Assembly (NCBI GenBank): GCA_018814025.1
Contig: JAHJAM010000025.1
Location: 2,530 to 66,529, forward strand
DNA from: Patescibacteria group bacterium
GTDB taxonomy: Bacteria; Patescibacteriota; Patescibacteriia; UBA9934; GWF2-40-263
DNA: 64,000 bases
Reading direction: 5' to 3'
Shown: positions 7,263 to 56,919 of the stretch, one piece after another
Layout of the letters: each line of letters starts with the position of its first letter
Numbering within the stretch: position 1 is the stretch's first letter
Position numbers and translations under genes: made by a program
The notes under the pieces: model-generated
What the model saw: only the letters and a program-made list of their open reading frames with translations
Told to the model about the DNA's origin: nothing
Database searches by the model: none

Positions 7263-7269
7263 GATCAAC

Positions 7270-33565: not shown

Positions 33566-33671
33566 AAAGAATTCCAAAGCCGGATGATGGAAAATAAAAC
33601 TTCCACCAACTGGTGTTTGGTGGAAGTACACTGATAATATCGCACATTTTTTCATGATTGTCAACTACAAA

Positions 33672-38127: not shown

Positions 38128-38132
38128 ATTCT

Positions 38133-38198
38133 AACCCCAGATTTTCGCTAAAATCTGGGGTTTTTTTCTTAGAAAAAGCCAGAGCCCGGCTCTGGCTT
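38133..38198 (+). terminator. two tandem rho-independent terminators
   Basis: AACCCCAGATTTTCGCTAAAATCTGGGGTTTTTTT, then AAAGCCAGAGCC-CGG-CTCTGGCTT. Confidence 0.85.
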
Positions 38199-38256
38199 GG
38201 GGAAAGGGATTTATCCACGATTTTTGCAACCAAATATGGTATAATTTCTCTTAGTT

Positions 38257-41004: not shown

Positions 41005-41034
41005 GCGTTAACCAGTTTCATAAGCAGGAGGATT

Positions 41035-43257
41035 ATGGCTAATCAGCCAAAGACAATGCAAGATTTACCGGAGGCGGTCGTGGATTTTTTAAACGGCCTG
41101 GAAGGTTTTGAATATATCAGCCATTTCATTAAGAAATTCGGTTTAAAACCAGAACAAGATATTGAAGTGATTAATTTGGTTTTGGATACGGTTTTGGGCC
41201 AAGTGGTTTTCGCGGATTTGCCGGAAGAAATAGAGGTGCTGTTCGGATTTGATGCCGAACAAGCTAAGCAAGCAGCCATTGAGCTGGCTGGCCATCGCTT
41301 GTTGCCAATTTCCGGCGTGATCGGGAATGTGGCCGAGCAGATTAAGAATTGGGGAGGGGATTTGGAACAATTTAAAAGCCAAGGCACGGTCGTAATGCCG
41401 GAGCTGACCGCGGAATCTTTTGTGCAAGGGGCTTTGAAGGATTTGGGCGTGGCCATGGAAAATGAAGTGCTGCAGCACCGTTTGGAATTGGTTTTGGTTT
41501 CTTACGCCAAAGGCGTGCGGGATCAGAGCGAAGCTCTGGGCACCATGACCCGGGCGCAAAAAGTCGGGGGTTTGGATATGGCGCAGGAAGATGCCGAAGT
41601 TCTGCTGAAGGAAATTGATCAGAAGATGGCGTTTATAAATATTTCGTTTAAGGAGAAAGTAGGTAGGGAAGAAGTAGGTAGGGTAAAAGTTCAGGATGTG
41701 AAGCCGCCGGTGAGGCAGGTTAGAAACGATAAGATGATGGTTGGAAAGGAGCAAACGCGGGTTGGAAGTGATTTGACCAAGAAAAAGAACAAAAGGGATC
41801 CGGAAATAGAGAAGATGCTGGCGACTTTGAAAGCGGATCAGGAAAAATCAAAGGCATTACTTAGTCAATTGAAGAATCAAAAAGTTAGAAATGAACAAAC
41901 GCAAGTTGGAAATGTTTTAACTAAGAAAAAAGACCCGGAAATAGAGAAGATGCTGGCGACTTTGAAAGCGGATCGGGAGAAGTCGCGGGAGCTGTTGAAG
42001 CAATTGAAGAATCAAAAAATTAAAAATGAGCAAAAACAGGTTGGAAATGAGAAGATGAGGGTTGGAAATAAGGATACGATTAAAACCGCGAAAAAGGATT
42101 TAATAGTTGAGAATGAAGCTTTGGCGAGAAATAATGGCGCGCCCACGGCCGCGGTCAAAGCGGAAGTTAAGAAGCCGGTTAAATTAGCGCCAAAAAAGCC
42201 AAACAAAAAATCAGTCGATACTTCGATATTAAATAAGAAAGCCAAAACCGGTTTGGGGGCTGATGTTTTCGACGATGAGGATGAGGCTGAGGTTCAACGA
42301 ATCGCTTCGGTCAGAGCCAAATCTTTGGCCGGCGCCAATGATCCGATTCAGGCGCTGATTGAGCAAATTATCGGGACGGCCAAGCTGAAATTTTCGGATG
42401 AAGAGATTAAACAGCGATTTATCAAAGCCGTGGAATCGCGGATTCGCGATGTGCGGGACATTTACGAAGTGCGGGCGCAATTGGAAAGCTCCAAGGATCA
42501 AGGCGGAGTGGGCTTGGCCGGGGCTCAGCTGGCGGAAACCGTGCAAGTGATCGATCGCTTGGTGAATGAACATCAAACCAAGCTGCAAGCCGAGTCGGAA
42601 AAGAAACAACACGAGTCAATGGCGCAAAAGCGGGCACAAACCGCGCAGGCCGCGCTGGCCGCCAAGCAGCTGGCAGATCAATTAATGGCCAAGCGCTACG
42701 CGGAAATCACGGGCCGAGCGCCGAGCGAGGCGGTGATCGGATCAGTGACCGGAAGCAACTCGGCCGGATCCGCGGAAGCAACCCTAGCCCGCCAAGAACA
42801 GCAAATTGACGCGCATCAAGTCAAGCAAGCGGTGATGGGCGCGCAGCGGATTGCGCCGAAAACCGCGAAACTCTCGGCCTCGAGCATTATGGCCGCGGCC
42901 GGCGCCAAGCCTCAAGTTCAGGATGTGCGCTTCACCCGCCGCTTAGCCGGTCCGGTGGAAGAGCTGCGCAATATGACGATCGTGGAATTCCGCCGCTTAT
43001 CAACCGATCCGCAAGCGGCCAGCGAAAAGATCAAAGATAAAATCGCCTTGGTTGAAGATCAAGGCTACGAACAAAAAATCGCGGCCATTAAAGGCTGGCG
43101 CTCCTCGCCGATCAACCAAGCGTATTTAAGCTTATCGCGCGAAGCTTTGCTTTCGGGCAAGCGGATCTCGGACTTATTAAAGGAGAAGGGGGAGGGAAGC
43201 TTAACCGAGGCCGAGCTGGTGGCGATTATGAAGCTCAACGGCGAGTTGCATTTCTGA
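41035..43257 (+). CDS. hypothetical coiled-coil protein with 45-aa tandem repeats
   Basis: Preceded by AGGAGGA RBS. Lys/Glu/Gln-rich. ~2.5 copies of the 'DPEIEKMLATLKAD.EKS..LL.QLKNQK..NEQ.QVGN' unit. Confidence 0.6.
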   Translation: MANQPKTMQDLPEAVVDFLNGLEGFEYISHFIKKFGLKPEQDIEVINLVLDTVLGQVVFADLPEEIEVLFGFDAEQAKQAAIELAGHRLLPISGVIGNVAEQIKNWGGDLEQFKSQGTVVMPELTAESFVQGALKDLGVAMENEVLQHRLELVLVSYAKGVRDQSEALGTMTRAQKVGGLDMAQEDAEVLLKEIDQKMAFINISFKEKVGREEVGRVKVQDVKPPVRQVRNDKMMVGKEQTRVGSDLTKKKNKRDPEIEKMLATLKADQEKSKALLSQLKNQKVRNEQTQVGNVLTKKKDPEIEKMLATLKADREKSRELLKQLKNQKIKNEQKQVGNEKMRVGNKDTIKTAKKDLIVENEALARNNGAPTAAVKAEVKKPVKLAPKKPNKKSVDTSILNKKAKTGLGADVFDDEDEAEVQRIASVRAKSLAGANDPIQALIEQIIGTAKLKFSDEEIKQRFIKAVESRIRDVRDIYEVRAQLESSKDQGGVGLAGAQLAETVQVIDRLVNEHQTKLQAESEKKQHESMAQKRAQTAQAALAAKQLADQLMAKRYAEITGRAPSEAVIGSVTGSNSAGSAEATLARQEQQIDAHQVKQAVMGAQRIAPKTAKLSASSIMAAAGAKPQVQDVRFTRRLAGPVEELRNMTIVEFRRLSTDPQAASEKIKDKIALVEDQGYEQKIAAIKGWRSSPINQAYLSLSREALLSGKRISDLLKEKGEGSLTEAELVAIMKLNGELHF
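41715..42075 (+). repeat. 135-nt tandem repeat (~2.5 copies) inside the 41035 gene
   Basis: Unit starts 41797 (gatccggaaatagagaagatgctggcgactttgaaagcggatc...) and 41932 (gacccggaaatagagaagatgctggcgactttgaaagcggatc...). Confidence 0.8.
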
Positions 43258-43269
43258 TAAGATGAGATT

Positions 43270-43704
43270 ATGCCCCAACAGTTTACCGTGCCACAATTTA
43301 TCGACGCGGAGGATAAAATCCTCGGACCGATCACCATCCGCCAGTTTGTCATCTTATTAGTGGCGTTTATGACGGATGCGGTTTTGTACAAACTTCTGCC
43401 GTTTGTGCCTTTTCTTTTGGTGGCCATTCCCTTAATCGCCGTGGCCGGCATTATCGCTTTTGTGAAGATTAACGGCATGCCCTTTCATTATTTTATTTTG
43501 AATTTGCTGCAAACTCTGAAGCGGCCGCAACTGAGAGTGTGGGATAAGACGATTAACGATTCGGAGCTGCGGGATTTGATCAAAGTGGTCAAAGAACCCC
43601 CGCCGCCGCCGCCGGAACGCAAGGCGCCGGTCTCCCGGTCGCGCTTGAACGAATTAACCTTAGTCGTCAACACTGGCGGACTTTATAAACCCGAGGGTGA
43701 ATAA
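43270..43704 (+). CDS. small two-TM membrane protein, VirB3/PrgI/TcpE-like
   Basis: 144 aa. Two adjacent hydrophobic helices. Located immediately upstream of the VirB4-like ATPase, as in Gram-positive T4SS. Confidence 0.45.
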   Translation: MPQQFTVPQFIDAEDKILGPITIRQFVILLVAFMTDAVLYKLLPFVPFLLVAIPLIAVAGIIAFVKINGMPFHYFILNLLQTLKRPQLRVWDKTINDSELRDLIKVVKEPPPPPPERKAPVSRSRLNELTLVVNTGGLYKPEGE

Positions 43705-43709
43705 ACAAT

Positions 43710-44387
43710 ATGCAAAGCAAACAAATGGCAAAATCTAAACCCGGGCCGGCCACGCAGCGCTATTTGGATATCGCGGAAATCCGCGATGATTTGGTGATCA
43801 TGAAGGACGGTACGGTGCGGGGCGTGCTCATGGTTTCCAGCATCAACTTCGCCCTTAAATCCGTGGATGAGCAAGAGGCGACCATCCAGGCCTACATGTC
43901 TTTTTTGAACAGTTTGGAATATCCGATTCAGATCGTGATTCAATCGCGTAAGATGAACATTGACGCCTACCTCGAATCTTTAAACGAACAATACAAAAAA
44001 TCCGTGAATGATTTGCTGCGGGCGCAAATTCTCGATTACCGCAATTTCGTTCAAGAATTGGTCAGTTTGGGAGAGATTATGCAGAAGCGCTTTTACGTGG
44101 TCGTGCCTTATGATCCGATCAGTAATAAGAAAAAGAATTTTTTCAGCCGCTTATCCGAGGCGATTTCGCCGGTGGCCGCGGCCAAGCTTTCCAATAAACA
44201 AATGAAGGATCGGCTCGATCAATTGGGCCGCCGGCTGGAAATGACCGCCGGCCAGCTGGAGTCCATGGGCTTGCAGGTGGCGCGTTTGGATACGCAAAGC
44301 CTGATTGAATTGTATTACACGGCTTACAATCCCGATCTTTTTGAAGATCAGAAATTGGATGATATTTCCAAGATCCGGACCGACTAA
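43710..44387 (+). CDS. VirB4/TraC-family N-terminal domain (split gene, part 1)
   Basis: GAGGGTGA RBS. 'DGTVRGVLMVSSINFALKSVDEQEATIQAYMSFLNSLEYPIQIVIQSRK' resembles the N-terminal region of Gram-positive VirB4-like ATPases. Same reading frame as the next ORF. Confidence 0.55.
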   Translation: MQSKQMAKSKPGPATQRYLDIAEIRDDLVIMKDGTVRGVLMVSSINFALKSVDEQEATIQAYMSFLNSLEYPIQIVIQSRKMNIDAYLESLNEQYKKSVNDLLRAQILDYRNFVQELVSLGEIMQKRFYVVVPYDPISNKKKNFFSRLSEAISPVAAAKLSNKQMKDRLDQLGRRLEMTAGQLESMGLQVARLDTQSLIELYYTAYNPDLFEDQKLDDISKIRTD

Positions 44388-44411
44388 TTTTTAATCAGCA
44401 AATGAGAATTT

Positions 44412-46568
44412 ATGGCCATTGAAATAGGCAAAATCCAAAAAGGCGCCATGCCCGCGCCGCCGCCGGCGCCGGTCAAACCCAAAGAAATGACCGAGGTGGA
44501 GAAACAAGCGGCCGAAACCAAAATTTTGTTGGAAGAGGAAAGGATCTACCGCCAAGGCGTGGTCACGGTTCGGGATTTGATTTCCCCGGCCGCTTTCGAA
44601 GTCAATCCGACTTTTTTGAAAATTTCCGGGATTTACGTGCGCACCATGTTCGTGATCACTTATCCGCGCCACTTGGGCGTGGGCTGGTCTTCGCCTTTGA
44701 TCAACCTGAATAAGACTTTGGATATCGCCATGTTTTTCTATCCGGTCAAGGCGAACATTATTTTGAAGCAATTGCAGAAGAAGGTCGGTATTTTAGAAGC
44801 CGGGATCATGGCGGACGCGGAAAAAGGTGCGCCGCGCGACCCGCTGCGGGAAACGGCCTTGCGCGACATTGAAGCTTTGCGCGACGCCTTAACTCAGGGC
44901 GTGGAGCATTTTTTCCAATTCGGTTTTTACGTGACCATGTATGCCAAGAATGAAGAGGAGCTGGAAAAGACTTCGCAAGAATTCGAGGCCATGCTGGGCA
45001 GCAAGTTGATTTACAGCAAAGCCGGCTACTATCAGGCCGAGCAGGGCTTCAACTCAACTTTGCCTCTGGGCAACGACGAGCTGATGATCAGCTATAACAT
45101 GAATACTTCGCCGATCGCGGCTTCCTTTCCGTTTATCAGTTCGGATTTGACTTCGGACAACGGGATTTTATTCGGCATCAACCGGCATAACAACTCTTTG
45201 ATTCTGTTTGACCGCTTCAGCTTGCAGAATGCCAATTCGGTGGTGTTCGCGACTTCGGGGGCGGGCAAATCCTACGCGATCAAATTAGAAATTTTGCGCT
45301 CATTGATGATGGGCGTGGAAGTGATCGTGATTGATCCGGAAATGGAATATAAGCATTTGTCCGACGCCGTGGGCGGCACTTACGTGAATGTTTCTCTGGC
45401 TTCGCCGGCCAAAATCAACCCGTTTGATTTGCCTAGAAAAGTGGGCGAGGACACGAAAGTCGACGACATTATTCGCAGTGCGGTGATCACCCTCAAGGGC
45501 TTGTTGCGGATTATGATCGGCAAGCCGATCGGCGAAGCCGGCAAGGTCGGTTTTGAACCGGAAGAGGATTCGATTTTGGACCGGGCCTTGATTGAAACTT
45601 TTGCCAAAAAAGACATTACGGCCGAGACCGCGAATTTGTCAGCCGTGGAGCCGCCGATCATGCAGGATTTTCAAGATGTGCTGGAAGGCATGGAAGGGGC
45701 GGATGATTTGGTGGCGCGTTTGAAAAAATATACGGAGGGCACCTTCTCCGGCTTGCTGAATTCGCCGACCACGGTGGAAATGAACAATCAGCTGGTGATC
45801 TTTTCCGTGCGCGATTTGGAAGATGAACTGCGGCCCATGGCGATTTATACCATCGTCAATTATATTTGGAACGTGGTGCGCGCCGAGCGGAAAAAGCGCA
45901 TTTTGGTGATTGACGAAGCTTGGTGGCTGATGCAGCACGACGATTCCGCGAAATTCATTTTTGCTCTGGTCAAGCGCTGCCGTAAGTATTTCATGGGCGT
46001 GACCACCATCACCCAGGACGTGAATGACTTTTTGCGCTCGCCTTACGGCCAGGCCATTGTGACCAACTCTTCAATGCAAATTCTTTTGAAGCAGTCGCCG
46101 GCCGGCATTGATAAAATTCAAGAAACTTTCCAGCTGACGGACGGAGAAAAATATCTTTTGTTGGAATCGGCCGTGGGCGAGGGGATTTTCTTCGCCGGAG
46201 CCAAACACGCGGCCATCAAGGTGGTGGCTTCGTACACAGAGGATCAAATCGTGACCACGAATCCGGCTCAACTTTTGGAAATTGAGGGCGCGAAAAAGGA
46301 ATTTGATGAAAAAATGGCGGCCGAAGAAACGGCCAGAAAGGAAAGCGCGGGACCGGGCGGATCAGTCCAAGCCCAAAGTGAAGAACCAGTTGAGGAACCG
46401 GCGGAAGCGGCGGTTGAAGAATTAAGCGCGGAGCAAATCGAAGCCCAAAAGGTCCAAGCCCAAGCCGCGGCCGCCTTTTTAGCCAAAGAGCAAGGCGGAG
46501 CCGCGCCCGGTACCGAAGCCGCGGGCCGAGCTGAAGCGGATAAATTACGCGAATCTTTAAAGGTTTAA
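44412..46568 (+). CDS. VirB4/TrsE/PrgJ-family type IV secretion ATPase (split gene, part 2)
   Basis: Walker A 'FATSGAGKSY'. Walker B 'RILVIDEAWWLM'. CagE/TrbE/VirB4 family. Acidic C-terminal tail. Confidence 0.85.
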   Translation: MAIEIGKIQKGAMPAPPPAPVKPKEMTEVEKQAAETKILLEEERIYRQGVVTVRDLISPAAFEVNPTFLKISGIYVRTMFVITYPRHLGVGWSSPLINLNKTLDIAMFFYPVKANIILKQLQKKVGILEAGIMADAEKGAPRDPLRETALRDIEALRDALTQGVEHFFQFGFYVTMYAKNEEELEKTSQEFEAMLGSKLIYSKAGYYQAEQGFNSTLPLGNDELMISYNMNTSPIAASFPFISSDLTSDNGILFGINRHNNSLILFDRFSLQNANSVVFATSGAGKSYAIKLEILRSLMMGVEVIVIDPEMEYKHLSDAVGGTYVNVSLASPAKINPFDLPRKVGEDTKVDDIIRSAVITLKGLLRIMIGKPIGEAGKVGFEPEEDSILDRALIETFAKKDITAETANLSAVEPPIMQDFQDVLEGMEGADDLVARLKKYTEGTFSGLLNSPTTVEMNNQLVIFSVRDLEDELRPMAIYTIVNYIWNVVRAERKKRILVIDEAWWLMQHDDSAKFIFALVKRCRKYFMGVTTITQDVNDFLRSPYGQAIVTNSSMQILLKQSPAGIDKIQETFQLTDGEKYLLLESAVGEGIFFAGAKHAAIKVVASYTEDQIVTTNPAQLLEIEGAKKEFDEKMAAEETARKESAGPGGSVQAQSEEPVEEPAEAAVEELSAEQIEAQKVQAQAAAAFLAKEQGGAAPGTEAAGRAEADKLRESLKV

Positions 46569-46569
46569 T

Positions 46570-47133
46570 ATGACGCGCAAACAAAAAATAGGAATCGGGA
46601 TGGCGCTAATTGCGGTGATAATCATGTTGATTTGGCTCTGGCTGCTGCGCGGGCCAGCGCCGGCCGTACCGCCGGCCGTGATCGCACCCGCGATTGAGGA
46701 AGAAACCCAGGCGCCGACATCGGTCCCGACTCAGGAAATGGCGGCCGAGCAGGCGAAGCGGGATGAGTCCGCGGGTTTGCAGTCTTTGGCGAAAACTTTT
46801 ACCGAACGCTATGGCAGTTTTTCCACGGAAGCGAATTTTGCCAATTTGTCGGATGTGATGATTATGATGACGCCGAGCTTTTCGGCTCAAACTCAAGCCG
46901 ATATCGAGGCGGCGAGCTTGGGAGAAAATTTTTACGGCGTGACCACCAAAGTGGTTAGTGTGAGCGTGGATCAATTGGATGAGGAAGCGGGTTTGGCAAA
47001 GTTGACGATTAACACCCAGCGCCAGGAAGCCGTGGACAGCCCGCAGAATATCTCGGTCAAATATCAAGATTTAGTTTTGAATTTTGAAATGATTAGCGGA
47101 ACATGGAAAGTCTCGTCCGCCGTTTGGCAATAG
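46570..47133 (+). CDS. membrane-anchored hypothetical protein (possible VirB8/PrgL/TcpC-like)
   Basis: N-terminal TM 'IGIGMALIAVIIMLIWLWLL'. About 150-aa extracytoplasmic domain. Position after VirB4. Confidence 0.35.
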   Translation: MTRKQKIGIGMALIAVIIMLIWLWLLRGPAPAVPPAVIAPAIEEETQAPTSVPTQEMAAEQAKRDESAGLQSLAKTFTERYGSFSTEANFANLSDVMIMMTPSFSAQTQADIEAASLGENFYGVTTKVVSVSVDQLDEEAGLAKLTINTQRQEAVDSPQNISVKYQDLVLNFEMISGTWKVSSAVWQ

Positions 47134-47801
47134 AATCGATTTGGCCGCGGTTTTGCATCCGTTGCGGTCGCGAGGGGGAAGTATTTTGCCGGCCTTGCCA
47201 GGAGGCTTACCGGCCGAGGATTTCTTTTGCGGCTTGTCCATTTTGCGGACGAGGCGGGTCTGATCGAGTCTGCGACGAGTGCGGGCCGAAAACGTATTTG
47301 GACGGCGTGATCAGCTTGGCCGCTTACGGAGATCCGGTCGTTCGCGAAGCGATCGGACTTTGGAAGTACCACGGCGATGAACAAGCTCAAGCCACGATTG
47401 AATTATGGGTGCGGCAGCTGGCTCAAAGTTTGCGGCTGGCCGAGGCAGTTGAGGCCGTCAGTTTTATCCCTTTGCATGAGAGTAAAAAGCGCAGCCGCGG
47501 GTTTGATCAGGCTCAAGAATTGGCCAAAATGGTGGCGCGCCTGATCAATCGGCCGGTTCAAGAAGTTTTGCGGCGCGACCGGAAGACCCGGGCTCAAGCC
47601 CAGCTGACCAATGAACAGCGGCTGGTCGGAGATCTGGATGGAATTTTTCGAGTGCAGGGGAATCTGCCCCAGAGCGTGGTTTTGTGCGATGACGTGTTTA
47701 CCAGCGGGGCCACCATGGATGCGGCCGCGCGAGAATTGAAAGAACACGGCGTAAAAACGGTTTTCGGATTAACTTTAGCCAAAGGTTCATTAAAGACTTG
47801 A
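47103..47801 (+). CDS. comFC: ComF-family protein (ComFC; zinc ribbon + phosphoribosyltransferase domain)
   Basis: 'CIRCGREGEVFCRPCQ...CPFCG' double zinc ribbon. PRTase motif 'VVLCDDVFTSGATMDAA'. Confidence 0.8.
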   Translation: MESLVRRLAIESIWPRFCIRCGREGEVFCRPCQEAYRPRISFAACPFCGRGGSDRVCDECGPKTYLDGVISLAAYGDPVVREAIGLWKYHGDEQAQATIELWVRQLAQSLRLAEAVEAVSFIPLHESKKRSRGFDQAQELAKMVARLINRPVQEVLRRDRKTRAQAQLTNEQRLVGDLDGIFRVQGNLPQSVVLCDDVFTSGATMDAAARELKEHGVKTVFGLTLAKGSLKT

Positions 47802-48955: not shown

Positions 48956-51007
48956 ATGGCGATTCACTTGAGCACATCAGTGGCGGCTTTGCCCGGCATT
49001 GGGGCCGGGGCCGCGAAGGATTTGAAAAACCTGGGCGTGGTTTGCGTGCGCGATTTGTTGGAATATTTTCCTTTTCGCTATGATGATTTTTCAAAAATCA
49101 AAGCCATCGCCGATTTGCGGCATGGCGATACGGTCACTGTGACGGGCCGGATTCGAGCCATTGAATCGCGCCAAGCGAAAAATCGCCGGCTGACTTTAAC
49201 GGAGGCGATCGTGGAGGACGGTACCGGAGAAATCAAAGTGATCTGGTTTAATCAGCCTTATCTGGAAAAAACTTTGTCGATTGGGAAAGTGGTTTCTTTA
49301 GCCGGGACCGTGGATTCGAAATTCGGCAAAACTTTAGTCAATCCGATTTACGAAGCCGCGCACACGAATATTCACACGGGCCGAATTGTGCCGGTTTACG
49401 GCCGAACCGGGGCTTTGACCATCCGTCGCTTGCGCGGCGCCATGCAAACGGCTTTGGCCGCGGCGGATGAAATTGTGGAGTGGCTGCCGGGGAAAGTCCG
49501 AGGGCAGGAACATTGGCCGGACGAGCCCGAGGCGCTGCGGGCGGTTCATTTTCCCAAGGACAATCAAGAATTGGCGCGGGCGATTGAGCGGCTGAAATTT
49601 GACGAGCTGTTTTTGCATCAGATGCTGTTTGCGGAAGTGCGCCGGCAAAAGGAGGTTAAGGAAGCCAAGGCTTGGGCGATCGATGAGTCTTATCTTAAGG
49701 AATTCGTTCAGCGTTTGCCGTTTGAATTAACCACGGATCAAAAAATGGCGGTTTGGGAAATCGTGCAGGATTGTGCCAAGGATCACCCCATGAACCGATT
49801 GTTGGAAGGGGATGTGGGCAGCGGCAAAACCGTGGTGGCGGCCATGGCTTTGGCGCACGCGATCAAACAAGGCGGCAAAGCCGCGTATCTGGCGCCCACG
49901 GAAATTTTAGCCAAGCAAGTGCATCAAGAATTGTCGAAATATTTATCCGGAGTGGAAGTGGCGCTGTTTACGGCCGGGCAAGTGAAATTGGGGCAGGAGG
50001 AGATTAGCCGAAATAATTTATTAGCGCTCTTAGCTCGAGGCGACTGCGCCTGCGTGGTGGGCACGCAGACTTTGATTCAAGAAGGCGTGAGTTTGCCGGA
50101 TCTGGGCTTGATCGTGATTGATGAACAGCATCGTTTTGGCGTGCGCCAGCGGCATGCCTTGCTGGAAACCGGGGATCGGCCGGCGCCGCATCTTTTGTCC
50201 ATGACGGCCACGCCGATTCCGCGCTCTTTGGCTTTGACTTTGTACGGCGATCTGCAGCTTTCGATCATCCGCCAAAAACCCAAGGGCCGCAAGCCGATCG
50301 CCACCCGGATCGCTTTTGAAAAAGCCAAAGCCGCCATGTGGCAGCAGGTGGAAGCGGAAATTAAAAACGGCCATCGGGCTTACGTGATTTGTCCGCTGAT
50401 CGATCCGTCAGACAAGCTGGGGACTCAGTCCGTGACTGAAACCGCCCAGGTTTTATCCAAGGGAGTATTGAAAAAAGTTAAGGTGGGAATTTTGCACGGC
50501 AAGCTGAAATCCGATGAGAAAGAACAGGTGATGAATGATTTTAAGAGCGGTCGAATTGAAGTTTTGGTGGCCACCACCGTAGTGGAAGTGGGAGTGGATG
50601 TGCCGGATGCGACCATGATGGTTATTTTGGGCGCGGAGCGGTTCGGTTTGGCGCAACTGCACCAGTTGCGCGGCCGGGTCGGGCGCAGCGAACGCCAATC
50701 GTATTGTTATCTGGCGCCGGAGACTTTTTCATCAAATACCAAAGAACGCTTAATGGCCATGGTGCATTGTGAGGACGGTTTTGAATTGGCGGAGCGGGAT
50801 TTGCAACTGCGCGGCGCCGGCAATGTTTTCGGCACGGCCCAATCCGGGTTTCCGGATTTTAAATTGGCCACGGTCGGGGACGCGGATTTAATCAAAAAAG
50901 CCCATGAATGGGCTCAGGAAATTTTGGCCAAAGATCCGCATTTGGATCGCAAGCCGTTATTGCGGCAAAAAATTGATGATGCGCTGGCGCAAGCTCATCT
51001 GGAGTAA
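48956..51007 (+). CDS. recG: ATP-dependent DNA helicase RecG
   Basis: Wedge domain. Helicase motif I 'GDVGSGKTVVA'. Motif II 'DEQHRFGV'. Confidence 0.92.
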   Translation: MAIHLSTSVAALPGIGAGAAKDLKNLGVVCVRDLLEYFPFRYDDFSKIKAIADLRHGDTVTVTGRIRAIESRQAKNRRLTLTEAIVEDGTGEIKVIWFNQPYLEKTLSIGKVVSLAGTVDSKFGKTLVNPIYEAAHTNIHTGRIVPVYGRTGALTIRRLRGAMQTALAAADEIVEWLPGKVRGQEHWPDEPEALRAVHFPKDNQELARAIERLKFDELFLHQMLFAEVRRQKEVKEAKAWAIDESYLKEFVQRLPFELTTDQKMAVWEIVQDCAKDHPMNRLLEGDVGSGKTVVAAMALAHAIKQGGKAAYLAPTEILAKQVHQELSKYLSGVEVALFTAGQVKLGQEEISRNNLLALLARGDCACVVGTQTLIQEGVSLPDLGLIVIDEQHRFGVRQRHALLETGDRPAPHLLSMTATPIPRSLALTLYGDLQLSIIRQKPKGRKPIATRIAFEKAKAAMWQQVEAEIKNGHRAYVICPLIDPSDKLGTQSVTETAQVLSKGVLKKVKVGILHGKLKSDEKEQVMNDFKSGRIEVLVATTVVEVGVDVPDATMMVILGAERFGLAQLHQLRGRVGRSERQSYCYLAPETFSSNTKERLMAMVHCEDGFELAERDLQLRGAGNVFGTAQSGFPDFKLATVGDADLIKKAHEWAQEILAKDPHLDRKPLLRQKIDDALAQAHLE

Positions 51008-52360: not shown

Positions 52361-53686
52361 TTATTTGCAGGTCGTGGACATTTTGGGTTTTTCAAAATGC
52401 CAAGGCTCGGAGCTGAGCACGCAGAAGCCCTGGGCTTTCATTTCCGCAATCAGCGTGGCTTGGCAGGCATTGGCAAAACAGGCAGACAAGTCGCCCAAGC
52501 ATTCTTTTTGGCTGATGCAAGGAATCCATTTATCTTCATACTTTTCCGCGGCCCAAATGTCAACGGCTCGGGCCGTGGTGTGCGGGCAATTTTTCGGGTC
52601 GAGATTTTTTAAAATGCAGGTTGAGGGCCGGTTCGGTTTTCGATTGCAGGTGGCTGAGCCGGGCTCGTTTTGACAATTTTGTCTGATCAAAGCGATTTGC
52701 TTTTCCACCGAACGGAAACCGGAAGAAATATACAGCCCATAGTTTTTTCCGTTCAAGTTGCCGGCGGCTTGTTCCACGGCTTGGGCGGCCTCTTGAGTGA
52801 TCAGCGAACCGGCGGGCTTGGGATTGAGAATATTGGCGCCGGCCGCGTTGCGCAAATCCGCGGGCGGAGCCAGGCCGCTGATCGAATTTTCTTCGCCTTC
52901 GCCAAAAGGCAGGCCCGGGGCCGAAGCCACTTGCTGGACGATAACCGGACGCAATAAGGTCAATTCCGGATTCACGGTATAAAGAATGGCGTAGGTGCCC
53001 AAGAGCAGAACGAAACCGATCACGGCGTTGGAAATGCGAGTCTTGGCTTCGCCGGCATCGCCGCGGCCGGCGGATAAAACATACTGCAGCCCGCCAATCA
53101 TGACCATAACGATGGCAATGGTTAAGGAAGCGCCGATCAGCCACTGATAGACAGAGGAAAAATATTCGCCAATGAAGTCGATAGAAAGTTTATTGCCTTT
53201 GCGCAAAGGCTCGGAAAAGCTCAAGCCGGGAATGGGCACGGCCAGTTGGGGCGTTTGGTAGGGCACGATTTTGATTTCCGCGTTGGGATCGGTTTGCACT
53301 CCGGAAAAGCTGCGCTGTTCGCATTCGGCCAGGGCGTTTTTTTACGCGGTCGGGGCGGTGCTTGGGTCAGCGATAAACAGTTGATTGATAAAACTGACGT
53401 CGTAGTATTTTTTGTCGATGCGCAAGCCCACGTCATTGGGACAGGCGACGTTGCAATAATATAATCCCTGATCCGCGCCGGGTTCGGAAACCGGAGTCAC
53501 GACTTGGCAATATTTGCCAATTTCATCTTTAAAGTTCGCGTCGTCAACTCGGAAATAACAAAGACAGCGCGCATTGACTGCTTGCGCTCGGGCGACCGGG
53601 GCGGCGGAAAGAAACAAAAGACCGAACAGTCCGATGAGCACGGGTCCGAGCATTAGGAGTTTAAGGGTTTTGGCGGTTGGCGACAT
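52361..53686 (-). pseudogene. cell-wall hydrolase paralogue (Cys-rich N-domain + two-TM module + M15/VanY-like D,D-carboxypeptidase) interrupted by one in-frame TAA at 53342-53344
   Basis: ORFs 53342-53686 and 52361-53299 are in the same frame. Read-through gives '...TA*KNALAECEQRSFSGVQTD...', aligning with 'NQAQRDCANRAFSAVAG' of the intact paralogue (53691-55067). M15 motifs 'SGFRS', 'HTTARAVD', 'EPWHFE'. Confidence 0.65.
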
Positions 53687-53690
53687 GAAT

Positions 53691-55067
53691 TTAACGTTTG
53701 ATGCAAGTTAGAACCGGGCCCGCGCCTTTGAAAGTGACGTGAATGTGCGGGCCGGAGGTATTGCCGGATTGTTCAATGGTTTGGCAGCCGCAGTCTTCTC
53801 GGCTGAAGGGGTCGTCGCAAGGGGTGCCGGTTTGATTGCACCAGCCGTTTTCCGCAGCTTTCCACCCATCCGGCGGCGTTTCGCCTTGGCAGCAGCGGCC
53901 GCCCACGTGGCCGATCAGTTCGCCTTGAATGACGGAATCGCCATCAGCCAGAGGAGTGCCGTCGCCGCGAATGAAATCTTTCACATGGCAGATGTAGGCG
54001 ACGGCGCCGCTGCTTTTGATGGTTAAAGTATTGCCGCAAGGATTATCCGCTTCGCTTCTTTTTAAAACCGTGACCGTGCCGCTGAAGGGGGAGCGGATCG
54101 GGGAATCCCAGGGCGCGACCCAGTCAATGGATTTAATATTTTGCCATTGGTAGTTTTGATCCCGGAAATGGTAGTTGCAGGATTCTTTTTGTCCGGTGGG
54201 CGAGGTGAAGCCGCCGGCCAATTTACACTGATCTTGGTTTTGCTGGGCCAAGGCATAGGCTTGATCGCAGTTGCTGCCCGCCCCGCTGGTTAAATCGCCT
54301 TCGTTGCCCACGGTTTCCATGGCCAAGACCGGATCAATAGTTTTCAAGCGCAGCGGACCCAGCACGGTCAATTCCGGATTAACCGTGTAAAGAATAATGT
54401 AAGTGCTCAAGAGCAGAATCAAGCCGATGACCGCATTGGTGATTCGGGTTTTGGCCGCGCCCACGTCGCCGCGGCCGGCGGATAAAACATATTGCAGGCC
54501 GCCGATCATGATCATGACAATGGCGATGGTGAGCGAGGCGCCGAGCAGCCATTGGTAGACGCCGGAAATGTATTGGCCGATAAAATCAATGGTCAGGTAT
54601 TGGCCTTGCTTGAGAGGTTCGCTGAAAGAAAGATTGGGAATGGCCACGCCCAGCACCGGAACGGTGAATTTTTTCGTGCCGGCCACATTGCCGGCCACGG
54701 CGGAAAAAGCGCGATTGGCGCAATCCCGCTGGGCTTGGTTGTAAGCCGGGTCAGCCACGTCTCCGAGGAATTGAACGATGTTGAGATCGAGCGCGTAGCG
54801 GGGATCGGTGACGAACAGTTTGAGTTTTGCCTCGCAGGCTTCACGGCAAAATTTATCCGGATTGGCCGGCTGTTGATTCAGACCAGTGGCAAATTCTTGG
54901 CAGTGGGTGCCGATTTGCTGGCTTGTGTCCGCGTAGGAGACTTTGAAATTACACAAGCAAGCCGTGTCCGCGGCTTGGGCCAGAGACGGGGCGGCCAAAA
55001 ATAGGCTCAGCAGCAGGCCGAGCAGAATCGGACTGATTAATTTACGGCCGCAAGGCATTTTCCACAT
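53691..55067 (-). CDS. secreted/membrane-anchored M23 (LytM-like) peptidoglycan endopeptidase with Cys-rich N-domain and two-TM module
   Basis: Signal peptide. 'CLCNFKV' Cys-rich domain. Shared module 'IPNLSFSEPLKQG...IGGLQYVLSAGRGDVGAAKTRITNAVIGLILLL'. M23 C-terminal motif 'SGPHIHVTF'. Confidence 0.75.
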   Translation of the reverse strand: MWKMPCGRKLISPILLGLLLSLFLAAPSLAQAADTACLCNFKVSYADTSQQIGTHCQEFATGLNQQPANPDKFCREACEAKLKLFVTDPRYALDLNIVQFLGDVADPAYNQAQRDCANRAFSAVAGNVAGTKKFTVPVLGVAIPNLSFSEPLKQGQYLTIDFIGQYISGVYQWLLGASLTIAIVMIMIGGLQYVLSAGRGDVGAAKTRITNAVIGLILLLSTYIILYTVNPELTVLGPLRLKTIDPVLAMETVGNEGDLTSGAGSNCDQAYALAQQNQDQCKLAGGFTSPTGQKESCNYHFRDQNYQWQNIKSIDWVAPWDSPIRSPFSGTVTVLKRSEADNPCGNTLTIKSSGAVAYICHVKDFIRGDGTPLADGDSVIQGELIGHVGGRCCQGETPPDGWKAAENGWCNQTGTPCDDPFSREDCGCQTIEQSGNTSGPHIHVTFKGAGPVLTCIKR

Positions 55068-55695
55068 AAGAGATAAGGCTGGCGGTTGAAAGGGCGCCGG
55101 CGTAAGACCGTTGATTGATAAAGAGGGTGGGGGTGGCGGTTAAGCCCAGGGCTTGGGCTTCGGCCAAATCCCGTTCAATGACGGGCAAAGGATCTTGCTG
55201 ATCAACGCAGCGCGCGAAGGAGTCCAAATCCAACCCGAGTTCTTGAGCCATGACCATGAATTGATCTTGAGATAATTGGTTTTGCCGAGCGAATAATAAA
55301 TCATGATAAGGCCAGAATTGATTTTGCTGGTCCGCGCAATGAGCGGCCACGGCCGCGGGCGAGGCCAGGGGGTGCAGGGATTGGTTGGGCAGATTTTTCC
55401 AAACGATTTGAACTTGAGTCGGATAGGTTTGATGCACGGTGGCGAGCGAAGCGGCCAGCTGTTGGCAGGCGGAACATAAAAAATCAGAAAAGACGAGAAT
55501 CTTGACCGGAGCCTGCAGACTACCCAGGGCCGGATTGATAAATGTGGCCGTGGGCAAGCCGTTGCCCGAGTTTTCTAAAGCCGCGATTTTATCCGCCAGC
55601 GGCGCGCGAATCGGCAGGAGATGGAAAATAAACAGGACAAAAATAATCACCGTGGTGACGCCGAGGGATAAGAAGATAAGCCATTTGTGCGGCAT
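55042..55695 (-). CDS. DsbA/BdbD-like thiol:disulfide oxidoreductase (thioredoxin fold, membrane-anchored)
   Basis: N-terminal TM. CxxC active site 'DFLCSACQQL'. Confidence 0.8.
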   Translation of the reverse strand: MPHKWLIFLSLGVTTVIIFVLFIFHLLPIRAPLADKIAALENSGNGLPTATFINPALGSLQAPVKILVFSDFLCSACQQLAASLATVHQTYPTQVQIVWKNLPNQSLHPLASPAAVAAHCADQQNQFWPYHDLLFARQNQLSQDQFMVMAQELGLDLDSFARCVDQQDPLPVIERDLAEAQALGLTATPTLFINQRSYAGALSTASLISYVENALRP

Positions 55696-55707
55696 AGGGG
55701 GAGGCGT

Positions 55708-56919
55708 TTATTTGAGTTTGAGACTGCTAAGCTGGCCGGAAACCGCATCCGTGAAATACAAGGTGCGGCCGTCGCCGCTGACCGTGAGATTTTCCATGGC
55801 CAGGTTTTGCGTGGGGATGGCCAGCAAGCTGGTGCGGCCGGTGGCCAGATCAACCTGATAGAGATTGTCCGGCAGGTTGCGGTACAGGGTGCGCTGAAAG
55901 CCGGCGTTGGTAGGCAGGTTTTGGGGCACGGCGCAGTAGGCTTCGGAATTGGAAGTGAAAGTGCATTTATCCGCCCAAGTATTCAGGCCCAGGCTGCGGC
56001 GGTTTTCACCCATGGTGGCCGGGCTGGCATCAACAATCCAGAGCAAAGGCTTTTCGCCGCTGTAAGCGCCGGAAGCCGAATATAGGAGCTGGCGGCCGTC
56101 CGGGGACCAGTTGGGCAAGAAACCCAAGCCTTCAATGATTAATCCTTTGTAGTTTTCGTGATTTTGGCCGATGGGCAGGATCATTTTTCGATCCAAGCCG
56201 CCGCTTAACGGTTCGGCCGTGTCCGCGAAGGCGATTACTTTATTGCTGGGCGACCAGCTGACTTGAACTTTATCCGCATTTAAGCCCAAGGCTTGAACAG
56301 CTTTGACATTGGAGCCGTCCGCGTTGCTGGTCACTAGCCAGCGATTGTCCGGATCAACGGCCATGTTTTTGGCCACGATTTGGTCCGAGCTATCGGAAAA
56401 ATCAAAGTCCTGCCAATGCTTGGGCAGAGTGACTTGCTGCTGGGTGGCAAAGTCGTAAACGATATTGGAGCCGTCCGGAAATTCAATAATGGCTTTATTG
56501 GCGTCCCCGTTCCAGACTACATTTTCGGCTTGCGGGAATTGCTGTTCAGATAAGCTGATCACATTGCCTTGGTCGTCGATTTGGTAAAAGCGGCCGTCGT
56601 TAGCATCGTAATAGTTGACTTGATTGCCGCTGACGGCGGTGTTGCTGACCGCGGAAGAGGTGAGAGTGGTGGTTTGCGTTTCGCGTCCTTGGGCCACGGT
56701 ATCGGCCAAGCTAACGCCGGCTCCGGGCGCAACTGGGATGGGCGAGCCTTCGCCGGCCGTGGGCAGATCCGGGGTTTCAGTGGCCGGCGGGGCCACGATT
56801 TCTTCGGGCGGGGTTTCAATCACCCCGCGGAAAAAGGCGAAGTAAAGGCCGGCGCCAATCAGGAGGATGGAGCCGATGAAGGCCACGATCATTAAAATTT
56901 GTTTCGTTTGGTCATTCAT
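55708..56919 (-). CDS. membrane-anchored TolB-like beta-propeller (PD40 repeat) protein
   Basis: N-terminal TM. Pro/Thr-rich linker. Repeated 'WSPDG/WSPSN' PD40-like blades. Confidence 0.65.
   Translation of the reverse strand: MNDQTKQILMIVAFIGSILLIGAGLYFAFFRGVIETPPEEIVAPPATETPDLPTAGEGSPIPVAPGAGVSLADTVAQGRETQTTTLTSSAVSNTAVSGNQVNYYDANDGRFYQIDDQGNVISLSEQQFPQAENVVWNGDANKAIIEFPDGSNIVYDFATQQQVTLPKHWQDFDFSDSSDQIVAKNMAVDPDNRWLVTSNADGSNVKAVQALGLNADKVQVSWSPSNKVIAFADTAEPLSGGLDRKMILPIGQNHENYKGLIIEGLGFLPNWSPDGRQLLYSASGAYSGEKPLLWIVDASPATMGENRRSLGLNTWADKCTFTSNSEAYCAVPQNLPTNAGFQRTLYRNLPDNLYQVDLATGRTSLLAIPTQNLAMENLTVSGDGRTLYFTDAVSGQLSSLKLK

Follow-up and report, generated by a model that had tools for sequence, protein, structure and literature searches.

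Two adjacent minus-strand genes in a contig of an ultrasmall bacterium of the Patescibacteria group each encode a Cys-rich domain, a VirB2-type pilin hairpin and a peptidoglycan hydrolase, and across related genomes the pilin core is a conserved handle on which the enzyme head is exchangeable. With slightly less than even confidence, we read the two products, A and B, as surface-displayed, hydrolase-headed pilins on a VirB2-type handle, assisted by a DsbA-like protein and probably handled by a type IV secretion system (T4SS). This suggests that a secretion machine may carry wall-cutting enzymes on its surface. No paper on such pilin-hydrolase fusions was found in the literature. Features of the window, the whole 64-kb stretch of DNA that was analysed, are collected in Table 1.

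Table 1. Coordinates of the fusion genes, their neighbours and the T4SS-like module in the window
Feature	Coordinates	Strand	Basis
T4SS-like module	36121..47133	+	
M23 lipoprotein of the T4SS cluster	36121..38127	+	
915-aa polytopic protein, putative VirB6-like role	38257..41004	+	
740-aa protein	41035..43257	+	
PrgI/VirB3-like	43270..43704	+	
TrsD/TraC-like	43710..44387	+	
VirB4	44412..46568	+	
187-aa TM protein	46570..47133	+	
164-aa two-TM ORF between the pair and VirB4	48289..48783		
Gene A, whole span: same front end as B plus VanY/M15 peptidase	52361..53686	-	
A C-terminal fragment, 312 aa, GTG start, MBU0646561.1	52361..53299	-	
A VanY/M15B head	about 52394..52804	-	Pfam, PDB profile
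A pilin hairpin	52955..53170	-	in 312-aa fragment
In-frame TAA (nonsense codon) interrupting A	53342..53344	-	
A N-terminal fragment, 114 aa, MBU0646562.1: signal peptide and most of Cys-rich domain	53342..53686	-	
Gene B, 458 aa, MBU0646563.1 ("hypothetical protein"): signal peptide, Cys-rich N-domain, pilin hairpin, M23 peptidase, in order	53691..55067	-	ORF, Pfam
B residues about 255-458, M23/LytM-type metallopeptidase head, 12 Cys	53694..54305	-	Pfam, Foldseek
B residues 129-245, conserved pilin module	54333..54683	-	PF18895, short-pilin HMM, AF2 model
B hairpin proper	54372..54587	-	inside pilin module
B residues 32-128, Cys-rich N-terminal ectodomain, six Cys	54684..54974	-	AF2 model
Membrane-anchored DsbA-like thiol-disulfide oxidoreductase, CSAC motif	55042..55695	-	Pfam
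403-aa membrane-anchored protein, PD40 beta-propeller repeat	55708..56919	-	PD40 E 2.9e-10
435-aa protein, first gene of the run: low-complexity N-part (GMQVAGTG repeats), two C-terminal TM helices	56929..58236	-	

Architecture of the two paralogues

A and B are tandem paralogues whose N-terminal parts are 50% identical (about 221 residues; BLASTP E 6e-62) and whose C-terminal domains are unrelated. Identity reaches 39% in the signal peptide, 28% in the Cys-rich domain, 50% in the pre-TM collar and 83% in the hairpin (78% at the nucleotide level). An earlier sequence-only reading had proposed a shared three-part architecture with a highly conserved hairpin and different C-terminal hydrolases, and all of these domains were recovered in both genes, but that reading had missed that A is split by an in-frame stop codon. 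Only 32 of the 60 identical hairpin residues use the same codon, which indicates an old paralogy under purifying selection rather than gene conversion.

The Cys-rich domain of B carries a conserved C-x-C...C-x3-C pattern, in which C37, C39, C74 and C78 are nearly invariant among 101 sequences. Its AF2 model (pLDDT 89) has a predicted beta-beta-alpha-beta-alpha fold for which Foldseek returned no solved structural relative in the PDB at E<=1e-3. The pilin module then runs from a beta "collar" (P.L.V.IPG.SF) through TM helix 1, a short basic loop (AK.RI.NA) and TM helix 2 to VNP.LT, with helices modeled at residues 162-196 and 202-229 and flexible linkers on either side (pLDDT <50 at 121-131 and 236-253). 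In the models, a small beta-sheet pairs the segment before TM1 with that after TM2, which would place both add-ons on the same, outer side. The C-terminal domain scores 29.3 bits against the Pfam M23 cut-off of 28.7, is modeled at pLDDT >90 (78 for the whole protein), and matches NMB0315, Csd1/2, LytM and lysostaphin (structures 3slu, 5j1l, 2b13 and 4qpb; Foldseek E 3e-6 to 1e-4). In 22 homologues, H300, D315, H361, H441 and H443 are invariant and ten Cys are conserved. The Cys tally of N-domain plus head is 6+12 in B and 6+10 in A, the majority conserved in homologues.

Judged by profile comparison, the C-terminal domain of A is VanY/M15B-like. It scores 23.7 bits with Pfam VanY, just below the cut-off of 25; its family profile matches the solved structures of YodJ (5e-10), VanX (7e-9) and LdcB; and S-x-x-R, H-x6-D and E-x-W-H are invariant. 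The NCBI label of the fragment is "D-alanyl-D-alanine carboxypeptidase family protein".

A stop codon in gene A

Homology of A to B and to an intact 439-aa orthologue (P0023; 60% identity over 430 aa) continues unbroken across the TAA, which aligns with a Glu of the orthologue and thus derives from GAA. A is split identically in a second, independent assembly of the window's own strain (L001; 15 SNPs over 20.9 kb), so the split is not an assembly error. Since A is broken, at least one of the two genes is dispensable or altered in this strain, a point against the reading as hydrolase-headed pilins. We think it very unlikely that the locus is simply decaying, with A a pseudogene left from a duplicated gene that is being lost and with no special function here. 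Such decay would fit the fixation of the TAA in two assemblies, the GTG restart with no well-spaced Shine-Dalgarno upstream, and the loss of a conserved sixth N-domain Cys (C122) in the untranslated gap. Past the stop, however, the 312 codons bear no further lesion and keep every VanY motif. The resulting fragment holds the collar, hairpin and VanY head and has no signal peptide of its own; homologues naturally free of the N-domain also occur (P0033, P0036, P0003 and P0009), although these retain a signal peptide. Decay would in any case concern A only, since B is unbroken and retains its full set of catalytic residues and conserved Cys.

Pilin identity of the hairpin

Both proteins pass the cut-off of PF18895 (T4SS_pilin), B with 31.7 bits over positions 6-69 of the 71 in the profile and A with 29.6 bits. 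When eight short pilins alone, seven from one Microgenomates gene array and one from Saccharibacteria, were made into a profile, its only matches in the window were A and B (E 1e-14 and 6e-14), the next ORF scoring E 0.42. PF18895 was matched by all 35 diverse cores and TrbC/VirB2 at E<=1 by 25 of them (best 1.9e-4), and the core also has a weak match to the Mycoplasma ICE pilin-like family NF045849. The pilin comparison called for earlier thus succeeded at the level of profiles but not of solved structures: neither sequence-profile nor Foldseek searches, both of low power with two-helix hairpins, brought up VirB2, TraA or TrbC, which counts against the reading as hydrolase-headed pilins. Short pilins and fusion cores share the motif GG..(Y/W)...G.GD..K...AK.RITNA.IG, and M, G, K and P residues are invariant over the 35 divergent cores, so constrained is the core beyond what an anchor needs. 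On sequence grounds, the hairpin is a genuine Patescibacterial VirB2/TrbC-type pilin core, as the sequence-only reading had suspected, rather than a generic anchor found in unrelated contexts.

The closest known counterparts are pilin arrays of Patescibacteria, such as the essential six-gene VirB2-like array in the T4SS locus of Southlakia epibionticum (PMC10633639) and 441 arrays of 2-11 genes each in 383 assemblies (PMC12102498). The surveys used PF18895 as their query, required >50% profile coverage, and so probably counted such fusions as "VirB2"; the retrieved main-text passages of the two papers make no mention of enzyme-VirB2 fusions. Like the arrays, which come from the same phylum, A and B have the same core and loop motif, are tandem paralogues of low overall identity, and neighbor a T4SS of VirB4/PrgI/TrsD type beside which neither a relaxase nor a coupling protein was seen. 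Array pilins are short, however (about 100-150 aa; compare L038), whereas A and B, at about 440-460 aa, flank the core with a Cys-rich domain on its N-terminal side and an enzyme on its C-terminal side; the operon that they share with DsbA-like and PD40 genes is separate from the T4SS cluster.

Head exchange at a conserved slot

The same core recurs with varied heads in relatives: PF18895 was present in 109 of 110 close representatives. Pfam heads in this set were C39_2 (17), VanY (15), NlpC/P60 (12), M23 (10) and M15_4 (8), followed by SLT (6), Amidase_2 (2), and 3D, glucosaminidase and GDSL lipase (1 each), and many further heads are unassigned. In relatives of the ABY1/Uhrbacteria lineage the slot is ordered PD40 protein, DsbA-like protein, one to three fusions, RadA. 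Its single fusions carry VanY, M23 or NlpC/P60; multiple fusions combine M23 with VanY (the window), VanY-like with M15_4, C39_2 with VanY and a headless copy, VanY with Amidase_2, M23 with NlpC/P60, or M23 with C39_2.

A constant N-terminal part followed by many alternative C-terminal enzymes, including a lipase and many unassigned heads, together with tandem cassettes and headless or broken copies in one slot, is also what polymorphic effectors against hosts or competitors would show, with the pilin core routing exchangeable toxin heads via the T4SS onto or into a neighboring cell. Polymorphic toxins and the X-Tfe effectors of the bacteria-killing Xanthomonadales/Xanthomonas T4SS likewise combine one conserved recognition or trafficking module with many wall- or lipid-degrading domains. 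The X-Tfe module, however, is reportedly a soluble C-terminal XVIPCD that binds VirD4, and each effector is said to be paired with a cognate immunity gene. Here the module is a two-TM hairpin, an improbable passenger for soluble-effector translocation; the window showed no VirD4 coupling protein; the fusions are followed by another fusion or by RadA, not by a small immunity-like gene; and the slot is chromosomal and syntenic rather than on a mobile element. We therefore regard an effector role as unlikely, even though the Patescibacteria in cultivation live as epibionts and need their T4SS to grow on the host (PMC10633639; PMC12857230).

Operon neighbors

Gaps within the run range from -26 to +13 nt, with the DsbA-like gene overlapping the start of B by 26 nt. 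The adjacent DsbA-like CxxC protein proposed earlier was recovered (Thioredoxin_4 87 bits, DSBA 51 bits). The neighboring propeller keeps its PD40 repeat but not its TolB label: as a TolB orthologue it was rejected, the TolB equivalog scoring 18 bits against a cut-off of 343. It is nonetheless the most conserved gene of the operon. The 435-aa protein gave no family match, and its relatives vary in length or the gene is absent. In 27 of 37 fetched loci (L002-L038, the window's own strain excluded) a DsbA-like homologue precedes the first pilin fusion by no more than 300 nt, and in relatives the DsbA-like gene is itself preceded by a PD40 homologue (E 1e-142 to 1e-192). Linkage of the fusions to both genes is strongly conserved.

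The arrangement resembles that of F-plasmid TrbB/TraF-type oxidoreductases, thioredoxin-fold proteins encoded beside pilin or pilus-assembly genes. The window's protein has weak matches to TraF (E 0.0024) and TrbB (E 0.0094), far below the family cut-offs; unlike them it is of the generic Thioredoxin_4/DsbA type, and its presumed substrates are Cys-rich ectodomains, not a pilus-assembly factor.

Relation to the T4SS and proposed function

The nearby T4SS-like module was confirmed, with PrgI, TrsD/TraC-like, VirB4 and polytopic 915-aa proteins. It contains no short pilin gene, and with no other pilin core anywhere in the window, A and B are the sole VirB2 homologues within 64 kb of this T4SS. 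Between the pair and VirB4 lie RadA, RecG, three tRNA genes, ComFC and the two-TM ORF. Each of the five ABY1-type loci that were retrieved with 10-kb flanks, L001 of the window's own strain among them, has VirB4, PrgI and the TrsD-like gene 5.8-7.7 kb from the fusions; in L037 a distance of 1.3 kb separates VirB4 from a fusion downstream of it. The linkage to VirB4 thus holds in the closest lineage but not throughout: L006 keeps the DsbA-like gene and fusion pair with no T4SS gene within 10 kb and no PD40 gene nearby, which counts against hydrolase-headed pilins.

The pair also sits in a housekeeping neighborhood (LemA, HtpX, ClpB, RadA, RecG) that is syntenic across the lineage, so gene order inherited with that neighborhood may be all that keeps it near the T4SS. 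Small-genome Patescibacteria still require some wall hydrolases, and A and B could be housekeeping autolysins on a recycled pilin-derived anchor that has lost contact with the T4SS, its hairpin being kept for oligomerizing or for binding the PD40 or DsbA-like protein. The core setting with one to three copies per genome, head types that are those of normal autolysins, and L006 all agree with this. A plain anchor, however, would not hold 83% identity beside flanks at 28%, nor keep the loop motif of short array pilins; housekeeping enzymes seldom have their catalytic class replaced at one locus between close relatives; and one copy is disrupted in this strain. We consider autolysins somewhat unlikely.

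If A and B are instead hydrolase-headed pilins, they would be Sec-exported, with the hairpin in a predicted N-out/C-out topology, its basic loop cytoplasmic, and extended N-terminally by a disulfide-rich domain and C-terminally by a peptidoglycan hydrolase. B would act as an M23 endopeptidase and A as a VanY/M15B carboxypeptidase that in this strain is cut into two ORFs. The Cys-rich ectodomains would most likely be oxidized by the upstream membrane-anchored DsbA-like protein, and the PD40 propeller protein would belong to the same conserved operon. Most likely, the handle would insert in the membrane as VirB2 pilins do and be recognized by the nearby T4SS; VirB4 would dislocate it, and the T4SS would build it into a pilus-like structure at its base, along it or at its end. 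Wall-cutting enzymes would thereby stand outside the cell, where they might open the cell's own wall around the machine or attack that of the host cell on which the bacterium lives. A homopolymer with two globular domains per subunit would be sterically demanding, which counts against a pilus built on such handles, and we know of no experiment or structure of a pilus built from any PF18895 protein, even less from one with a head of roughly 200 aa. The T4SS cluster's own M23 lipoprotein counts against hydrolase-headed pilins as well.

The sequence-only reading had also suggested that the pair could be VirB1/PrgK-like wall-remodelling components or surface filament subunits. The monoderm VirB1 analogues PrgK of pCF10, TraG of pIP501 and TcpG, cited in PMC12102498, resemble A and B as membrane-anchored extracytoplasmic peptidoglycan hydrolases with modular catalytic domains and genetic linkage to a T4SS of monoderm type. 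They differ in combining SLT/lysozyme-like and CHAP domains with a plain N-terminal TM anchor inside the transfer operon, whereas A and B bear VanY and M23 heads on a pilin core, and a separate M23 lipoprotein belongs to the T4SS cluster. A and B may act as VirB1/PrgK-like components or as filament subunits; SLT-headed members of the fusion family exist elsewhere (6/110).

The concept of a carrier pilin has a parallel in the bimodular type IV pili (T4P) pilins of Streptococcus sanguinis, in which the pilin moiety displays a grafted functional module on the filament. Fold and machine differ there, and the T4P modules are adhesive, not wall-hydrolytic.

Gene run around the two hydrolase paralogues

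Genes A and B are paralogues built of a signal peptide, a Cys-rich domain, a two-helix membrane hairpin (hereafter the core) and a C-terminal wall-hydrolase domain (the head), and proteins that join core and head are called fusions here. Identity between the two is 50% across the N-terminal ~221 residues (E 6e-62), and no alignment extends beyond that point. Neighbors in the run 52361-58236 overlap by up to 26 nt or lie at most 13 nt apart, so the run is likely co-transcribed. The protein encoded by its first gene combines GMQVAGTG-type repeats with a Q/K-rich middle and has no family match; the corresponding ORF of relatives is anywhere from ~134 to ~610 aa long and is often undetectable.

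The DsbA-like assignment of the gene upstream of B was confirmed by Pfam (Thioredoxin_4, 87.1 bits; DSBA, 51.3 bits) and by its CxxC motif, and the N-terminal hydrophobic segment ahead of the thioredoxin fold is that of an exported or membrane-anchored protein. The TolB-like label proposed for the neighboring propeller protein fared poorly: the TolB equivalog TIGR02800 scored 18.4 bits against a cut-off of 343, Pfam detected one PD40 repeat only, the top PDB sequence match had E 0.06, and no Tol or Pal partner genes were found within the window.

Features of the A/B gene run and of the T4SS-like region (window positions)
Feature	Coordinates	Strand	Basis	Remarks
435-aa low-complexity protein, two C-terminal TM helices	56929..58236	-	ORF	
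403-aa membrane-anchored protein, PD40 propeller repeat	55708..56919	-	ORF, Pfam	
217-aa DsbA-like thioredoxin-fold protein	55042..55695	-	ORF, Pfam	CSAC motif
Gene B, 458 aa	53691..55067	-	ORF	
Gene A, interrupted, 441 aa read through	52361..53686	-	ORF	
A N-terminal piece, 114 aa				MBU0646562.1; signal peptide and most of Cys-rich domain
A C-terminal piece, 312 aa				MBU0646561.1; GTG start at 53299; 'D-alanyl-D-alanine carboxypeptidase family protein'
RadA	51036..52355		gene order	5 nt downstream of A
RecG	48956..51007			
ComFC-like	47103..47801			
T4SS-like block	36121..47133			M23 lipoprotein, 915-aa polytopic protein, PrgI, TrsD/TraC-like, VirB4
P-loop VirB4, 718 aa	44412..46568	+		
TrsD/TraC-like protein, 225 aa	43710..44387	+		
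PrgI	43270..43704			
M23 lipoprotein	36121..38127	+		
IS200-type Y1 transposase	32954..33664	-		E 1.7e-8
SemiSWEET-like transporter, 100 aa	32517..32819	+		MtN3_slv E 1.7e-9
3158-aa protein	22167..31643	+		

Pilin signature of the membrane hairpin

The sequence-only reading had likened the hairpin to VirB2/TrbC-type pilins, and profile searches bear this out. The PF18895 (T4SS_pilin) cut-off of 26.6 bits is passed by B (31.7), A (29.6) and the core of B alone (34.9). All 35 divergent cores match PF18895, 25 match TrbC/VirB2 at E<=1 (best 1.9e-4) and 15 match DUF6112, and NCBIfam gave sub-threshold matches only: a Mycoplasma ICE 'pilin-like conjugal transfer protein' for the core, TrbB for the DsbA-like protein and TolB for the propeller protein. 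Agreement also came from an HMM of eight short pilins, seven from a Microgenomates array (L038, 109-147 aa) and one from Saccharibacteria (L039). Against the six-frame window it matched B (E 1e-14) and A (5.7e-14), with the next ORF at E 0.42; conversely, the core HMM matched the seven array pilins at E 3e-5 to 1e-14. By eye, short pilins and fusions have in common the motif GG..(Y/W)...G.GD..K...AK.RITNA.IG.

Between A and B the hairpin is 83% identical and the Cys-rich domain 28%. Only 32 of 60 identical hairpin residues use the same codon, which reflects purifying selection on old paralogues; with nearly half of these residues differing in codon, recent gene conversion was ruled out as the source of core identity.

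Hydropathy and AF2 place two hydrophobic helices at residues 162-196 and 202-229, joined by a short basic loop (SAGRGDVGAAKTR), and the signal of B shows by eye an n-region, an h-region and an AQA-type site. A cleavable signal combined with the positive-inside rule would put both add-ons outside the cell. In the models, a small beta-sheet is predicted to link the segment before helix 1 with the segment after helix 2, and disordered linkers would reach both add-ons. The size of the proteins (458 and 441 aa) is unlike that of a small pilin, which is about 70-120 aa when mature; the pilin module spans residues 129-245, with ~97 aa ahead of it and ~210 aa behind.

Structural searches gave a divided answer for B: the M23 head was recognized in its predicted structure, but the high-confidence model of the N-module had no Foldseek match in the PDB at E<=1e-3, leaving the hairpin and Cys-rich domain unplaced. 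A solved-structure profile search with the 35-core alignment likewise returned no VirB2, TraA or TrbC, its best match being PsbZ at E 0.66 (noise). Taken together, the sequence profiles, the constraint on the hairpin and the models point to a pilin core rather than a generic anchor.

Enzyme heads of B and A

The M23 assignment of the B head, marginal in Pfam (29.3 bits, cut-off 28.7), gained support from Foldseek. In the AF2 model of B (22 homologues; mean pLDDT 78), the C-terminal domain exceeds 90 and resembles NMB0315, Csd1/Csd2, LytM and lysostaphin (3slu, 5j1l, 2b13, 4qpb; E 3e-6 to 1e-4). Residues H300, D315, H361, H441 and H443, together with ten Cys, vary little or not at all. The first His lies 15 residues ahead of the Asp rather than in HxxxD spacing, so it is a putative Zn ligand. 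For A, the VanY/M15B-like identity also stands, although Pfam alone (VanY, 23.7 bits) falls below the cut-off of 25: a profile of VanY-type relatives reaches the solved M15B enzymes YodJ (5e-10), VanX (7e-9) and LdcB (5e-3), and also VanXY. A-type heads have invariant S70, R73, H117, D124, E175, W177 and H178 (S-x-x-R, H-x6-D, E-x-W-H). Given the fold match and conserved residues of B, and the profile and motifs of A, both heads look catalytically competent.

Interruption of gene A

Every part of the claimed two-paralogue architecture is present, but A is not a single ORF. A TAA at codon 115 (53342-53344, in translation of 52361..53686) splits it upstream of the VanY/M15B domain. Homology to B runs across the TAA (KNALAECEQRSFSGV versus NQAQRDCANRAFSAV), and the read-through aligns with an uninterrupted 439-aa orthologue (P0023) at 60% identity over 430 residues, with Glu opposite the TAA. 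The same split is found in a second assembly, GCA_018822945.1 (L001, the window's own strain), which differs by 15 SNPs, none of them in A or B, over 20.9 kb (99.93% identity). An assembly error was ruled out because this independent assembly has the same split, and the nonsense codon is therefore real in the population. Recoding or an alternative code was also rejected, since the codon is TAA, other window genes are normal with table 11 and P0023 has Glu at this site.

No well-spaced Shine-Dalgarno sequence precedes the GTG restart, the N-domain loses its sixth conserved Cys to the untranslated gap, and the 312-aa ORF has no leader or signal peptide. A is therefore either a recently formed pseudogene or a derivative in two pieces whose enzyme half is unsignalled. 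Reading the locus as just decaying would concern A only, and we regard it as very improbable.

A family of pilin-hydrolase fusions

With B as query, a word-indexed search retrieved 62 relatives, and all with a usable organism name are Patescibacteria. In these, the core is joined to M23, VanY, NlpC/P60, Peptidase_C39_2, M15_4 or Amidase_2, and some have 200-450-aa tails without a Pfam match. When the core profile was run exhaustively with HMMER against 1.84 billion cluster representatives, 60,630 matches reached E<=1e-3, 17,861 reached <=1e-10 and 225 reached <=1e-30; the best 150 are mostly 330-530 aa long, with the core at about residues 100-230. PF18895 is present in 109 of 110 close representatives. 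Their heads include C39_2 (17), VanY (15), NlpC/P60 (12), M23 (10), M15_4 (8), C70 (8), SLT (6) and Amidase_2 (2), with one each of 3D, glucosaminidase, GDSL lipase and C10, and many further heads in the family have no assigned domain. Judged by domain content, one constant handle carries almost the full repertoire of predicted peptidoglycan-cleaving chemistries. Public names for the family are 'hypothetical protein', 'TrbC/VirB2 family protein', 'pilin' and 'D-alanyl-D-alanine carboxypeptidase family protein'.

Some top matches hold 3-16 tandem cores (P0097, 1775 aa; P0071, 1147; P0075, 820; P0126; P0164). Such 'poly-pilins' may be genuine polyproteins or the result of gene calls run together.

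Patescibacterial VirB2-like pilins and their tandem arrays have been described and are essential in Southlakia epibionticum (PMC10633639), and a survey of 3,035 genomes used PF18895 (PMC12102498). A review treats these pilins as an exception to the absence of VirB2 from Gram-positive T4SSs (PMC12857230), and they are the only exception reported for such monoderm systems (PMC10633639, PMC11665869, PMC12857230). Enzyme fusions to VirB2 are not mentioned in the passages of PMC12102498 retrieved by term search, and no description of pilin-hydrolase fusions was found in the portions of the full-text literature retrieved, including PMC12102498, PMC12857230, PMC10633639, PMC11665869 and PMC12419801. 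The fusions are no new machine; they are a large, previously unremarked architectural class of Patescibacterial pilins, marked by head swapping at the level of the locus and by an operon in which the DsbA-like and PD40 genes are conserved.

Head exchange at a conserved locus

In all, 39 related loci (L001-L039) were collected, the nearest named relatives being Candidatus Uhrbacteria MAGs; one syntenic genome, GCA_004297215.1, is classed as ABY1 in the PMC12102498 supplement. The order PD40 - DsbA - fusion(s) - RadA recurs in about twenty loci. By local HMM, 27 of the 37 loci besides the window's strain (L002-L038) have a DsbA-like gene <=300 nt upstream of the first fusion. Between one and three fusions occupy this slot, and their heads vary from genome to genome: single heads are VanY, M23 or NlpC/P60; pairs are M23+VanY (the window), VanY-like+M15_4, VanY+Amidase_2, M23+NlpC/P60 or M23+C39_2; and the three-gene content is C39_2+VanY with a headless copy.

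Headless copies, consisting of N-domain and core with a tail of <=13 aa, were seen at L009 8381..9100 and L023 5389..6201. Slot fusions among L008, L016-L018, L022 and L037 have ~230-440-aa C-terminal domains without a Pfam match, which are candidate new wall-active or other domains. In L020, a 611-aa fusion with a weak M15_4 head (5476..7308) directly follows the PD40 gene; no separate DsbA-like ORF is present there, and the N-terminal 170 residues of the fusion are unmatched by the DsbA profile. Many of the loci come from third-party (TPA) MAGs titled 'uncultured Gammaproteobacteria bacterium' (L008-L011, L017, L019-L021, L024, L025, L027-L030, L036, L037); with their Patescibacteria-type gene content, the title looks like a placeholder or mislabel.

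Constant N-terminal modules with varied enzymatic C-termini also characterize polymorphic toxins, and the fusions share this layout, so they might be true translocated effectors. Polymorphic toxins, however, have a cognate immunity gene directly downstream, whereas here A follows B and RadA begins 5 nt after A, as in relatives. With no immunity gene, no VirD4 and a core that is a membrane hairpin, we consider this reading improbable.

The slot lies in a core-genome neighborhood, and in L006 the fusion keeps its upstream DsbA-like gene, the rest of the neighborhood is gone and no T4SS gene is near. Both points favor ordinary autolysins on a recycled pilin-derived anchor, but extreme core conservation and head turnover speak against such an origin, which we hold to be unlikely, if a serious contender.

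Relation to the T4SS

The A/B pair lies 5.8 kb from VirB4, with RadA, RecG, three tRNAs, a 164-aa ORF and ComFC between them. Five ABY1-type loci were retrieved with flanks of 10 kb, L001 from the window's own strain among them, and in all five the VirB4/TrsD-like/PrgI block is 5.8-7.7 kb away, past RadA, RecG and ComFC; in L037, VirB4 has a fusion 1.3 kb downstream of it. The T4SS-like block has no short pilin, and the core HMM, Pfam on small two-TM ORFs and the short-pilin HMM found no other pilin gene in the window, which leaves A and B as the sole VirB2 homologues within these 64 kb. The small ORF at 43270..43704, considered as a pilin, was rejected as PrgI.

The idea that A and B serve as VirB1/PrgK-like components does not fit well. 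Hydrolases of that type have SLT/lysozyme-like and/or CHAP domains and are encoded inside the transfer operon, whereas A and B carry VanY and M23, have no SLT or CHAP match, and lie outside the cluster on the opposite strand. VirB1 homologues sometimes have M23 or LysM domains (PMC12102498). The cluster has an M23 lipoprotein of its own, a candidate VirB1 analogue distinct from A and B; its gene stands first in the cluster, and the protein joins a lipoprotein-type signal (LAGC) to a long PEPEPE-repeat linker.

A possible carrier role

The reading that fits best, because it accommodates a constrained pilin core, two tethered Cys-rich ectodomains, a conserved oxidoreductase, exchangeable wall-hydrolase heads and a nearby T4SS without another pilin, is that A and B are pilins turned carriers and linked to the T4SS. 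We adopt it tentatively, at somewhat short of an even chance, and the functional link to the T4SS is one that we infer. After export by Sec and oxidation by the DsbA-like partner, fusions would insert in the manner of VirB2, as N-out/C-out hairpins, and would then be available to the T4SS. In Agrobacterium, the T4SS pulls VirB2 out of the membrane with VirB4. The fusions may end as sparse subunits, a cap or a basal collar, or may remain in the membrane beside the machine, and the wall they cut would be the producer's or the host's.

A bolder version makes the T4SS filament an enzyme-bearing 'drill', in which head-carrying pilins polymerize into or cap a VirB2-type pilus and open the host wall. 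Fusions, hardened by disulfides, would possibly be the sole pilins in ABY1 lineages. Head swapping would follow the wall chemistry of the host, with the DsbA-like and PD40 proteins as dedicated maturation partners. We think this improbable; if true, it would assign a concrete task to a T4SS on which epibiotic growth depends and which works without relaxase and coupling proteins. That essentiality comes from the one species tested, and reviews call the function unknown (PMC10633639, PMC11665869, PMC12857230).

Under the carrier reading or otherwise, the vague question of the T4SS role becomes experimentally specific now that the pilin core is found joined to almost all classes of wall-cleaving enzyme and encoded beside a disulfide oxidoreductase in one conserved operon. 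The family is a naturally occurring case of domains displayed on the scaffold of a T4SS pilin, and for enzyme discovery it supplies hydrolase heads rich in disulfides as well as head domains that have no assignment. Even if the fusions are ordinary membrane autolysins, 'VirB2 homologue' counts in Patescibacterial genome surveys need rereading; the PMC12102498 supplement enters PF18895 matches as 'VirB2', without lengths.

Other genes near the T4SS-like block

VirB4 function appears split: the TrsD/TraC-like protein is similar to the N-terminal portion of ATPases of the VirB4 family (NF045975 E 2e-11; TrsD 4.5e-7), and the P-loop VirB4 follows it directly; this pair also occurs in relatives. 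Genes of recombination and competence (ComFC-like, RecG, RadA), two tRNA-Ser and one tRNA-Arg are always found between the VirB4 block and the fusions in ABY1 relatives (L001-L005), as in the window; these intervening genes may reflect inherited order only, or a DNA-related T4SS role. The 3158-aa protein has one N-terminal hydrophobic segment and a single, sub-threshold CBM_4_9 match (23.6 versus 25.9 bits), and resembles the very large surface proteins that are frequent in Patescibacteria. Beside the semiSWEET-like gene lies the transposase, in a region of lower GC (0.46).
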